A stretch of DNA of 64,000 bases from Eledone cirrhosa (lineage: Eukaryota): the NCBI GenBank assembly GCA_964016885.1, contig OZ024761.1, positions 26,474,001 to 26,538,000 of the forward strand. The letters are read 5' to 3'. Shown here piece by piece: positions 20,922 through 31,683 of this stretch. Made by a program: the position numbers and the translations under genes. The stretch's first letter is position 1, and each line of letters begins with the position of its first letter. Under the pieces are notes generated by a model. It made no database searches and was not told the DNA's origin. It was given only the letters and a program-made list of their open reading frames with translations.

Positions 20922-21148
20922 TAACGAAGGAAATGTGGTAAGGAATCAGGTGGACCATAACGCACCAAATTACTCAATACTTAGGGTAGTAGAGTGGGTA
21001 ATAGGAACAAGTAAGACCCCGACGGCTGAGCTCAAGCCGTTTCGACGGCTAATTCTGTACTGAATAAAATACAAATATTAATAAAAGAGTACAGAATTAG
21101 CCGTCGAAACGGCTTGAGCTCAGCCGTCGGGGTCTTACTTGTTCCTAT
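20922..21148 (-). mobile_element. Family A asymmetric hairpin element (inverted repeat 21001-21148 plus 79-bp tail) in (TA)n
   Basis: Arms ataggaacaagtaagaccccgacggctgagctcaagccgtttcgacggctaattctgtact and its reverse complement. Contains the hammerhead 3' half GAAA-CGGCU-UGAGCUC-AGCCG-UC|GGGGU. Confidence 0.88.
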
Positions 21149-21177
21149 ATATATATATATATATATATATATATATA

Positions 21178-21714
21178 TATTGTTATGCTTTGGGAGGGTC
21201 ATGTTGCCAATAAGAAACACACGCACCAGTTGCTTTCACTCCAATTTATTATAAATTAAATTTATAAATTTCCGGTTGGTTGGTTGCTTCCACAACCGGA
21301 CGTTTGTTCATATATTGTCCAAGATCTTTCGTCACACATTCTGTTACCTCTTCAGTGACTGGGGATTCTTTTCTTTGTTTTTGTGCCTCTCTTTTCTTCT
21401 GTCCTACGCCATCTTGTTTTTGCGTGTGTTGTGTGCTTAGTTTGCGCATGTGTTACATCCGGGTATCTGTGTGTGTTTATATTTGTTTATTTACATGTTA
21501 TTGGTTGGTTTATTCTATGTGTGTGAGTGTTTTCATTTTCTCCTTAATTGTAAGTTGTGATGTTGCTATTCCATTCATGTTTTCTATTTTCTATTTAATT
21601 TCTATTAAATTTATAAATTCTTAAATTTATAAATTTAATTTATAATAAATTGGAGTGAAACTGTGATGCATGTGTTTCTTATTGGCAACATGACCCTCCC
21701 AAAGCATAACAATA
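21178..21714. mobile_element. Element with about 90-bp inverted arms (21178-21271 and 21623-21714) around a 350-bp spacer
   Basis: tattgttatgctttgggagggtcatgttgccaataagaaacac... is mirrored by ...gtgtttcttattggcaacatgaccctcccaaagcataacaata. Confidence 0.8.
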
Positions 21715-21784
21715 TCGGTTTCAACACACGTATTCAGATAAAGAATCTTGCTAAACAAATTCAGAAACGAAATATGTATATATA

Positions 21785-21920
21785 GAAAAGGTAAACAGAA
21801 ATAACAACACAATCGGTACAGTATATGGAAGGAATATATTAGTTTAACGATTGAAATAGCAGGAAGAGGGTCTTACTGATTCGGACGCTAGTCCTTCATC
21901 AGAAGAAAGAATGAGAAATA
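21785..21920 (-). mobile_element. Family C element with hammerhead motif (21871-21906)
   Basis: Minus strand: UCUU-CUGAUGA-A-GGAC-UAGC-GUCC-GAAU... (core mutated). Related sequence occurs at about 4420-4545, 30567-30658 and 62281-62750. Confidence 0.75.
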
Positions 21921-21942
21921 ATATATATATATATATATATAA

Positions 21943-22170
21943 ATTAAGTAATTCCTTCGGAAAAGTCCAGGAAAAAAGAGTGCTCTATGTAGGTAACAGA
22001 GCTTAATAGTTATGTAATAAAAAACATAAGGCAATTATTCCATTTACCAACAAATTTTGCTTTCAATCATCAGAATGAAAAAATCCTGGTCTCCCAGGAT
22101 TTTTTCATTCTGATGAAAGAAACCACTGGTAAATGGAATAATTGCCTTATGTTGTTTATTACATAACTAT
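21943..22170. mobile_element. Asymmetric hairpin element (inverted repeat about 22007-22170) with a stem II-less hammerhead-like motif
   Basis: Mirrored arms around aaatcctgg tctc ccaggattt. Plus strand 22103-22138: UUUCAUU-CUGAUGA-AA-GAAA-CCACUGG-UA|AAUGGAA. Related sequence at about 4566-4678. Confidence 0.75.
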
Positions 22171-29285: not shown

Positions 29286-30214
29286 CGCGTGCGCATGTGT
29301 GTGTTTAATCTACCTCTTATTGTACAATGCTGTCTGTTATAATTGAATTGTGGTCTAATAGATAATGTATATTCGAGATTATATGAAATTTCTACGCAAT
29401 CCAATTAGGCTTTTATCGTTTCTAGACAAATTTCTGCGAAGTTATACAAATGAAGTCTACAAGCTTAATATCATCATAGTATTACGTATGCGCTTGTCGA
29501 CTGGAAGGAATAGAGCGGAGCGAGCGCCTCTTCCTGATGAGATCCTTGTTGCACTCAGCTCTAGTCGGATCTGCAATTATCGTGGAAAGCTCCTAAGCTT
29601 AATAGGGGGATTCTGAAGTGTTTAAATTATTGTTTTTCCGTGTTCTGTTTTTAGAAGTTGATGAAGGACCGTCACACACACACATACACACACTTAAATT
29701 CATACATACATACATACACATAAACACAAACATGTACACATATACATGCATGATTACAGATATGTATTGTATATGTGTGCGTGTGTGTGTGCATACATAT
29801 AAGAGATTACTGATATTGGAACCTTCAGTAAATCACTAATCAAATGAGCCATCCAATATATATATATATATATATATATATATATATATATATATATACA
29901 CACACGTATGTGTGTATATATATATATTAGTATATATATATATATGTATATATACACGTGTGTGTGTATATATATATACACGTATGTATATATATATATA
30001 CAACCCTATGTATATACATATATATATATATATATATACGTATATATACGTACGTGTATATATATATACATATATATATGCCAACTTACGAATATATATA
30101 TACGTACGTGTATATATATGTATATATACAAACGTACGTATATATATATATATATATATATATATATATATAAGCAAAAGGGATATTTAATGTGCTGGTA
30201 GTTCAACACTTAAC

Positions 30215-30500
30215 TTTGGTACGCTCTCATCAGATAAAATACAAAGATTGTTTTATAAATATTGACATAAACAGGAAGATCTTAACGGTCGACGTTTTTC
30301 CTGGAAGAAGATCTTAACGGTTCAAGTTTATCCAGGAAAAACTTGAACCGTTATATCTCCTTCCCGGTTATGTCAATAGTTAGAAACCAAACTTTGTATT
30401 GTATCTGATGAGGGCGTACCAAAGTTTTGATACCCTTGAAATATATATAACAGAATAAATATTGTTTTATAAATATAGTTTCCATTTATTTAATATCATT
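30215..30500 (+). mobile_element. Family E asymmetric hairpin element (inverted repeat about 30215-30427) with hammerhead motif at 30397-30457
   Basis: aactttggtacgctctcatcagata... is mirrored by ...tatctgatgagggcgtaccaaagtt. Core is CUGAUGA..GAAA-UAUAUA-UA, with an imperfect stem I. Confidence 0.75.
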
Positions 30501-31007
30501 GTATATATATATATATATATATATATATATATATATATATATATATATATATGTGTGTGTGTGTATGTAAAATGTAAGCAGAAATAACAACACAATCGGT
30601 ACAGTATAGGAAAGGTATATATTAGGTTAAGGCTTGATATAGCGCGAAGAGGGTCTTATATACACACATACACTCACCTGGTAAATAAACACATCCTGCT
30701 CTCCTCTGATCCATTACGTAAGCCCATTGCATAATAACCACAATAACATATCATCAGTAATGATATGTGACATCATATATATATTGCTTAAACCATTTTG
30801 TTTGTTCACCCTAGCGTCCCCTTTATTTACGTGTCCCAACGACTTTTTTTAGCCGTTGTTCGCACCAACCTGAGGCATATGGCCTTTAAAGTGATGAAAT
30901 GCCTAGGACGGTTGGAAGGCCACTGACGAAGGACTTACTTTTTCATATGTAACCCATTTGCAACGCCGCAGCTCCATTATTATTATATATATATATATAT
31001 GTATATA

Positions 31008-31201
31008 TAACAAAGGAATTGTGGTAAGGAACCAGATGGACCATAACGCACCAGAGTACTCAATACTTAGGGTAGTAGAGTGGGAAATAGGAAAAAGTAT
31101 GACCCCGACGGCAGAGCTCAAGCCATTTCGACGGCTATTTAGTCCATAAATATCCGTCGAAACGGCTTGAGCTCTGCCGTCGAGGTCAGACTTTTTCCTA
31201 T
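31008..31201 (-). mobile_element. Family A asymmetric hairpin element (inverted repeat 31087-31201 plus 79-bp tail)
   Basis: Same tail and same short-arm end as the other copies. Both arms share the private variant gacggcagagctc. Confidence 0.88.
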
Positions 31202-31330
31202 ATATATATATATATAATATCTGGTTTATGGTTTTATATATTTTGATATATTTATTATTCTTATCGAGCTGTCTTCGGATTTTATTCTTTATATTTAATA
31301 TTAGTACTATATATATATATATATATATAT

Positions 31331-31683
31331 ATAGGAACCAGTAAGACCCCGACAGCTGAGCTCAAGCCGTTTCGACGGCTAATTCTGGACTAAATGAACA
31401 TTTATCCTGGTATTTAAATAGCCGATCTTCTCAAGGGGTAATTCCATATATGGTCAAAGTGATTGTCAAAAATCACTTTGACCATATATGGAATTACCCC
31501 TTGAGAAGATCGGCTATTTAAATACCAGGATAAATGTTCATTTAGTCCAGAATTAGCCGTCGAAACGGCTTGAGCTCAGCTGTCGGGGTCTTACTGGTTC
31601 CTATTACCCACTCTACTACCTCAAGTATTGAGTACTTTGGTGCGTTATGGTCCACCTGGTTCCTTACCACATTTCCTTCGTTA
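31331..31683 (+). mobile_element. Family A asymmetric hairpin element, longest copy (perfect 134-bp arms 31331-31464 and 31471-31604, plus 79-bp tail)
   Basis: The full hammerhead fold is visible at 31496-31589: ACCCC-UUGAGAA(degenerate core)-[GAUCGGCUA..UAGCCGUC stem II]-GAAA-CGGCU..AGCUG-UC|GGGGU. Confidence 0.9.

Follow-up and report, generated by a model that had tools for sequence, protein, structure and literature searches.

How can a short non-coding hairpin lying in a TA microsatellite come to have two arms of related sequence, of which only one continues into an unpaired tail? Hairpins of this kind recur in the window (the whole 64-kb stretch of Eledone cirrhosa DNA that was analysed), where they form a dispersed family, here called family A. 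They are probably short 5'-truncated 3' ends of a Penelope-like element (PLE), placed head-to-head in TA-rich microsatellites, and their two ends would then correspond to two start sites of reverse transcription, one for each end of the cut target.

Layout of the family A copies

Four hairpins, each with a long arm and an inverted short arm, had been reported in an initial annotation of this DNA, and all four were found where it placed them. A fifth piece consists of a tailless arm alone. The strand of each copy is given as the sense of its tail-bearing arm.

20922..21148, minus strand: copy A1; tail 20922-21000, tail-bearing arm 21001-21061, 26-nt spacer 21062-21087, tailless arm 21088-21148
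23657..23862, minus strand: copy A2, of a diverged subfamily; tail 23657-23735
31008..31201, minus strand: copy A3; tail 31008-31086, arms 31087-31141 and 31147-31201, 5-nt loop
31331..31683, plus strand: copy A4; tailless arm 31331-31464, loop 31465-31470, tail-bearing arm 31471-31604, tail 31605-31683
2983..3052, minus strand: copy A5; tailless arm alone

The long arm runs 79 bp past the short one, as had been noted: in all four hairpins the far end, read as its reverse complement, aligns to its own copy at an offset of 79 (30, 26, 28 and 30 matches in 30), and the A1-A4 tails align without gaps over 79 nt, any two of them differing by 4-18 mismatches. The exact ends of A1-A4 are uncertain by 2-3 nt because TAT/TA blends into the flank; automatic TA-trimming of three copies gave tails of 79, 79 and 80 nt. 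The arms pair perfectly in A1 (61 bp, around the 26-nt spacer) and in A4 (134 bp, 6-nt loop), with 4 mismatches in A3 (55 bp) and with 8 mismatches and 2 gaps in A2 (~60 bp). The copies A1-A4 have lengths of 227, 206, 194 and 353 and four different centres, hence neither the uniform length nor the shared interior of a MITE.

TA or TAGA repeats border all family A copies, in keeping with the microsatellite bias of PLEs. A run of (TA)n after the short arm was seen again in reads of two samples. The left flank of A2 is a TAGA repeat, not (TA)n. All four hairpins have the inverted, 5'-truncated, head-to-head arrangement known from PLEs, and the tail is likewise confined to one end, although at 79 nt it goes beyond the published 30-40 bp. 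No tandem copy (direct pseudo-LTR) occurs among the five family A copies in the window. About half of the window is masked as simple repeat, and the output of a generic repeat finder was dominated by microsatellites.

The lone arm A5 abuts, head-to-head, the end of an unrelated repeat (3053-3140), and the pair is flanked by two (TA)n tracts. This repeat end is a weak relative of the end of a further element at 21181-21711 (0-1 of 1,000 shuffles score that high). The latter, which directly adjoins the TA tract of A1, has 76-bp inverted ends and a unique 380-bp interior. Within the A1 spacer (21062-21087), 24 nt match, with 2 mismatches, the end (20055/20292) of a family B hairpin that lies 800-1,000 bp away; the spacer is possibly templated filler.

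Both arms of a copy had been thought to come from one template, on account of private variants that they share. In a 46-nt core common to the arms, those of A1, A3 and A4 differ from their own partner by 0, 3 and 0, and from other arms by at least 2, 4 and 2. In these three copies the closest relative of an arm is thus its partner, but the arms of A2 differ from each other by 8, a tie with A1; both carry a 2-nt insertion, yet they have diverged from each other. The variants are not private but common in the subfamilies: the A3 marker occurs in 4,765 of 13,003 reads (37%) and the A4 marker in at most 18% of reads. The variant gacggcag, placed at 31108, is present and starts at 31107. Judged by these variants, the two arms of a copy belong to one subfamily source, as would be the case if a single RNA or a single source locus had given rise to both; arm similarity could also stem from later homogenisation or from assembly polishing.

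Predicted hammerhead, tail hairpin and probable Penelope-like identity

A hammerhead is predicted in the tail-bearing arm of A4, by fold and by descriptor, with a mirror copy in the other arm.

31496..31589, plus strand: predicted type I hammerhead
31496-31500 with 31585-31589, plus strand: stem I, 5 bp
31501-31507, plus strand: core U3U4G5A6G7A8A9
31508-31561, plus strand: stem II, 54 nt
31562-31565, plus strand: GAAA
31566-31582, plus strand: stem III with palindromic loop, 4 bp
after 31584, plus strand: predicted cut, with GUC at the cut

The strand that ends in the A4 tail has a three-way junction in its minimum-energy fold, with a U3-A8 core and G10.1-C11.1. Four window sites in all match the hammerhead descriptor, written by hand after the motif had been seen, and the A4 arms account for two of them. 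This descriptor is matched by none of 2,000 arm shuffles, and shuffles of the unmasked window give 0.01 matches against the 2 observed. The A4 fold as a whole is no stabler than that of shuffles (z = +1.0). In an Rfam search of 19500-32500, the 150 listed of its 195 matches were all microRNA-like hairpins below threshold, with no hammerhead among them. Pattern scans gave 0 matches in the viral, the prokaryote and the metagenome collections, the last of which was scanned twice.

According to the accessible part of one survey, metazoan PLE pseudo-LTR hammerheads are like the A4 fold in being type I, with G10.1-C11.1, a palindromic loop 3 and U3-A8, the last a core variant reported in Schistosoma PLE hammerheads, and in forming opposite-strand motif pairs 100-700 bp apart; the predicted A4 hammerhead differs from the minimal PLE form in its 54-nt stem II and 4-bp stem III (PMC4209133). 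Naiads are described, in what is accessible of the reports, as being without canonical hammerheads, in a search that used the C3-G8 core (PMC8557442, PMC3846280). On its predicted fold, A4 has the hammerhead of a PLE pseudo-LTR.

No PLE reverse transcriptase or GIY-YIG domain was found by Pfam in 72 six-frame fragments of the window; the sole reverse transcriptase and endonuclease match among them falls in a LINE frame at 34365-37916. Around this frame, an apparently intact LINE at 34362-37997 (minus strand) has a 1,211-codon open frame with endonuclease, reverse transcriptase and C2H2 zinc-finger matches, and we take it to be RTE-like. Membership of family A in the PLEs rests on non-coding features, because no PLE protein is linked to copies that measure at most 353 bp. 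Family A very likely consists of PLE-derived, 5'-truncated pseudo-LTR ends, and the source element is likely an endonuclease-bearing Penelope-like retroelement. The earlier view that these MITE-like hairpins are retro-products is borne out by the hammerhead fold, the one-sided tail, the TA target and the variable 5' extent. Non-LTR retrozymes, which are head-to-tail tandem units with a type I hammerhead each, were considered and rejected, the window copies being dispersed and head-to-head.

The beginning of the tail folds into a small hairpin that recurs in other TA-flanked families of the window.

31610..31633, plus strand: stem-bulge-stem hairpin at the start of the A4 tail; counterparts in A1-A3 with first nt 20995, 23730 and 31081, and also in families D, E and F
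22206-22407 and 55776-55949: family D, TA-flanked hairpins with one-sided tail (D1 tail 68 nt)
21943-22167 and 4577-4681: family E, TA-flanked hairpins with one-sided tail (E1 tail 66 nt)
41821-42072: family F, TA-flanked hairpin with one-sided tail of 66 nt
20047-20300: family B, symmetric hairpin without one-sided tail; a C3-G8 hammerhead starts at 20201, plus strand

The stem-bulge-stem hairpin is present in all nine tails examined. The sequence of its inner stem varies between families while the pairing is kept. Where the tailless end could be placed, the hairpin begins 3-5 nt beyond it. The tail-hairpin descriptor was fitted to these tails; of the 19 window sites that match it, 9 are these tails. 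D1, E1 and F share the layout of family A, with the tail hairpin just beyond the tailless end. We infer that the reverse transcriptase docks on this hairpin.

Several other repeats were seen in the window. Two more hairpins have unequal ends (75-326 and 30172-30440); a single C3-G8 hammerhead motif lies between two (TA)n tracts at 1293-1355 (minus strand), with a related piece at 55568-55629; a dispersed SINE-like family of ~190 bp occurs at 330-517 and in more than 10 other places; and a tandem array with a 220-bp unit (7590-8897) contains no match to the hammerhead descriptor.

Fixed ends and turning points in reads and contigs

Of 18 listed runs, 4 were matched at 80% likeness to one A4 arm (31465-31688): two are contig sets and two are raw reduced-representation runs, the raw reads coming from two other samples. 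Matching raw reads numbered 23,543 and 24,118, or 0.19% of each run.

31604..31604, plus strand: internal fixed 3' end (tailless end), seen as loose ends of reads and contigs, with (TA)n next in reads

Random short-arm ends would have argued against fixed priming sites, and the ends are not random: the largest class of loose ends among those listed lies behind 31604 and runs into (TA)n in both raw runs (3,441 and 3,019 reads), a further 559 weaker loose ends lying outside the listing. The same loose end occurs in 75 and 3 contigs of the two contig sets (the 3 from a second organism label), and another 564 reads at 31595 represent the same tailless end after an indel. Most other reads reach the tail end, which is covered by ~9,300-10,400 reads, the mean depth in the last bin being ~10,800 and 11,800. 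The tailless end and the tail end are thus both fixed family-wide. About 26% of the reads crossing 31600 terminate at the tailless site, so many tail-bearing arms are without a tailless partner; tailed arms outnumber tailless ones in these libraries, which may be biased.

A loose end at 31671 and a loose start at 31598 were not accepted as additional ends and were assigned to the diverged A2-type subfamily. Read piles starting at 31551 and 31492 were also rejected as real ends; both start on AATT and are likely restriction cuts of the library, and raw-read depth was for this reason left unused for 5' truncation. An opposite-strand joint of 31604 to the tail end (31688), found in 35 and 9 reads, makes tail-to-tail neighbours and is likely one copy inserted in a short TA tract beside another.

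The point at which the hairpin turns is variable within limits. It had been described as differing between copies, and four centres and varying joints agree with this, but it is not free: in three of the four copies it is equivalent to ~31541-31550, within ~10 nt, and overall the turning points vary yet cluster within ~20 nt. Opposite-strand joints in reads and contigs give the same picture. Of 18 found, 15 were listed and 13 counted, the excluded ones being 31604 to 31688 and 31606 to 31657. All 13 inversion-type joints start in the same region, an arm ending at 31540-31557 being followed by a partner that starts at 31582-31641; 10 of the 13 are present in both raw-read samples. The turning cluster falls on the 3' strand of stem II of the hammerhead. 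Its distance from the predicted cut, 27-44 nt in the upstream direction, rules out the cut site itself as the turning point. Summed contig depth drops 20- to 30-fold upstream of the cluster, where diverged sequence may also fail to match.

The joints are often asymmetric. The partner starts inside the tail in 6 of 13, and the tail-bearing arm is shorter than its partner in 7 of 13, with head-to-head orientation inferred from read lengths and a 150-nt read being too short for a full tailed arm. Three joints have a shorter side that terminates exactly at 31604. The set is a biased subset, because there are no symmetric turning joints among those listed; their absence likely reflects cutting of both arms by the library. 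The A3 and A4 loops read as a sense continuation of the tailless arm.

Proposed priming at two sites and its alternatives

In the proposed mechanism, the GIY-YIG nuclease of the element would cut both strands of a TA tract, and the tail hairpin would be the docking site of the reverse transcriptase. Reverse transcription would be primed by one target end at the end of the tail and by the other ~5 nt 5' of the hairpin; the template would be a single RNA, or else RNAs transcribed from one source locus. Each cDNA would usually end prematurely, in the vicinity of hammerhead stem II. Short inverted matches or filler would link the 3' ends of the two cDNAs, and the duplex would be completed by repair. 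The A3 and A4 loops, the pairing of A5 with another repeat end and the A1 spacer fit two cDNAs joined at their 3' ends.

Biochemical work on a Poseidon element of Anolis carolinensis, PAc, bears on these steps. In vitro, as far as the accessible text goes, both strands of AT-rich DNA are cut and extended, reverse transcription starts at two sites that bound the tail, and the two strands showed no difference in where it starts (PMC11167929). PAc is like family A in that two fixed 3' ends bound the tail, downstream of the hammerhead, with an AT-rich target; its sites lie in an AC-rich stem loop and are non-homologous to the target, whereas those of family A are 79 nt apart with a TA match of 2-3 nt, and the accessible text assigns no one-site-per-end pairing within a single insertion (PMC11167929). 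Priming at two sites from both cut ends, which the initial annotation had proposed, is likely, being favoured by the shorter tail-bearing arms. Much of it is not new: a pair of start sites at the two ends of the tail, and the cutting and extension of both target strands, have been demonstrated in vitro (PMC11167929, accessible part). Its suggestion that AT matching drives the priming fares less well: the match to the TA flank is only 2-3 nt, A5 has TCT at that position, and the PAc start site is, in the same text, non-homologous to the cut DNA (PMC11167929).

Single priming is the principal alternative, though an unlikely one. A PLE cDNA would fold back and copy itself, and the second arm would be resolved, by the nuclease of the element or by repair, always at one site that lies 79 nt before the end. 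This would account for arms that share variants and for their near-perfect symmetry, and the turning points do gather at hammerhead stem II, itself a natural inverted repeat; in the accessible text of the sources, self-priming has been proposed for head-to-head PLE junctions (PMC3846280) and the tail has been attributed to nuclease resolution (PMC8557442). Fold-back cannot, however, lengthen the tailless arm beyond the tailed one. It predicts that the tail-bearing arm is never shorter, and the 7 of 13 joints in which it is shorter therefore favour priming from two ends. Against fold-back are also the A3 and A4 loops, which follow the tailless arm, the solo tailless A5, and the coincidence of the two ends of the tail with the reverse transcription start sites seen in vitro (PMC11167929, accessible part). 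The asymmetry has a counterpoint in that asymmetric deletion of a finished palindrome, or loop flipping, yields the same joint shapes. The many tail-bearing arms that are without a tailless partner also count against priming from two ends.

An ordinary MITE or fold-back DNA transposon with a TA target, to which the inverted arms, the TA on both sides, the non-coding sequence and the proximity of three of the four turning points would be natural, is very improbable: the 79 extra nt at one terminus in all four copies make the two termini different, so there is no terminal inverted repeat. The centres differ in all four copies, a hammerhead fold is present, and the single shared inversion point expected of a MITE is absent, the turning joints varying in reads. 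Hardly credible is an origin of the hairpins as assembly or library artefacts. In its favour are the identity of the A4 arms over 134 bp and the liability of palindromes to chimeric reads and to polishing, and the four loci are known from the assembly, not from long reads; yet the tailless end with (TA)n and the opposite-strand joints recur in raw reads of two samples and in another study's contigs, and the arms of A2 and of A3 have diverged from their partners.

In L1 twin priming, an inversion arises when the second end of the target DNA primes at an internal position of the RNA. Joints with a tail-only arm have this geometry. Priming from two ends in family A would differ in that the internal site is fixed and the cDNAs usually overlap on the RNA, so that a palindrome is formed instead of an inverted 5' segment.

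The accessible parts of the PLE literature describe insertion units in which a truncated copy is inverted and one end bears a tail of 30-40 bp, with a bias for (TA)n (PMC8557442, PMC3846280, PMC8969392). Penelope/Poseidon, Neptune and Naiad units are, like family A, head-to-head with an inverted truncated copy, a one-end tail, a (TA)n target and no discernible target duplication, but the 79-nt tail is about twice as long as their 30-40 bp (PMC8557442, PMC3846280). Unlike published PLE units, those of family A hold the 3' end alone (194-353 bp), and the likeness comes from non-coding features. Already published are thus the inverted truncated copies, the one-sided tails, the (TA)n targeting and the two start sites bounding the tail. 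Added here are the roughly doubled tail length, three further families having 66-68-nt tails and the same hairpin, and joints with a shorter tail-bearing arm. In the open literature, so far as its text is accessible, no paper was found with 66-79-nt PLE tails, the tail hairpin or PLE twin priming; subscription papers and repeat databases may differ. Hairpins like family A are not described in the accessible text of an octopus repeat annotation (PMC13282606) or of a retrozyme preprint (10.64898/2026.07.22.740005), and family A motifs were not found in the text part of the PMC8557442 supplement, a partial text that carries little weight.

The family A observation is real, a variant of a known pattern and a useful mechanistic lead. 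It also warns that a MITE annotation of a short TA-flanked hairpin can conceal a retro-product. How PLEs come by their inverted repeats, and by a tail on one side only, is not yet settled according to PMC8557442 and PMC11167929. The tails of family A are long, its ends sharp and its copies numerous, at 0.19% of the reads in each of two reduced-representation runs, and counts of copy geometry could therefore decide between priming from two ends and fold-back. A bolder and more tentative proposal, with somewhat less than an even chance of being right, is that twin priming on one RNA is obligate in a TA-targeting PLE group, a protein dimer on the tail hairpin assigning each cut end to one of two fixed sites. 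If so, the inverted pseudo-LTR and the one-sided tail would be products of a single step, the RNA structure lying between the two sites would determine how long the tail is (66-79 nt here), and the genome would be a very large natural record of the reaction.
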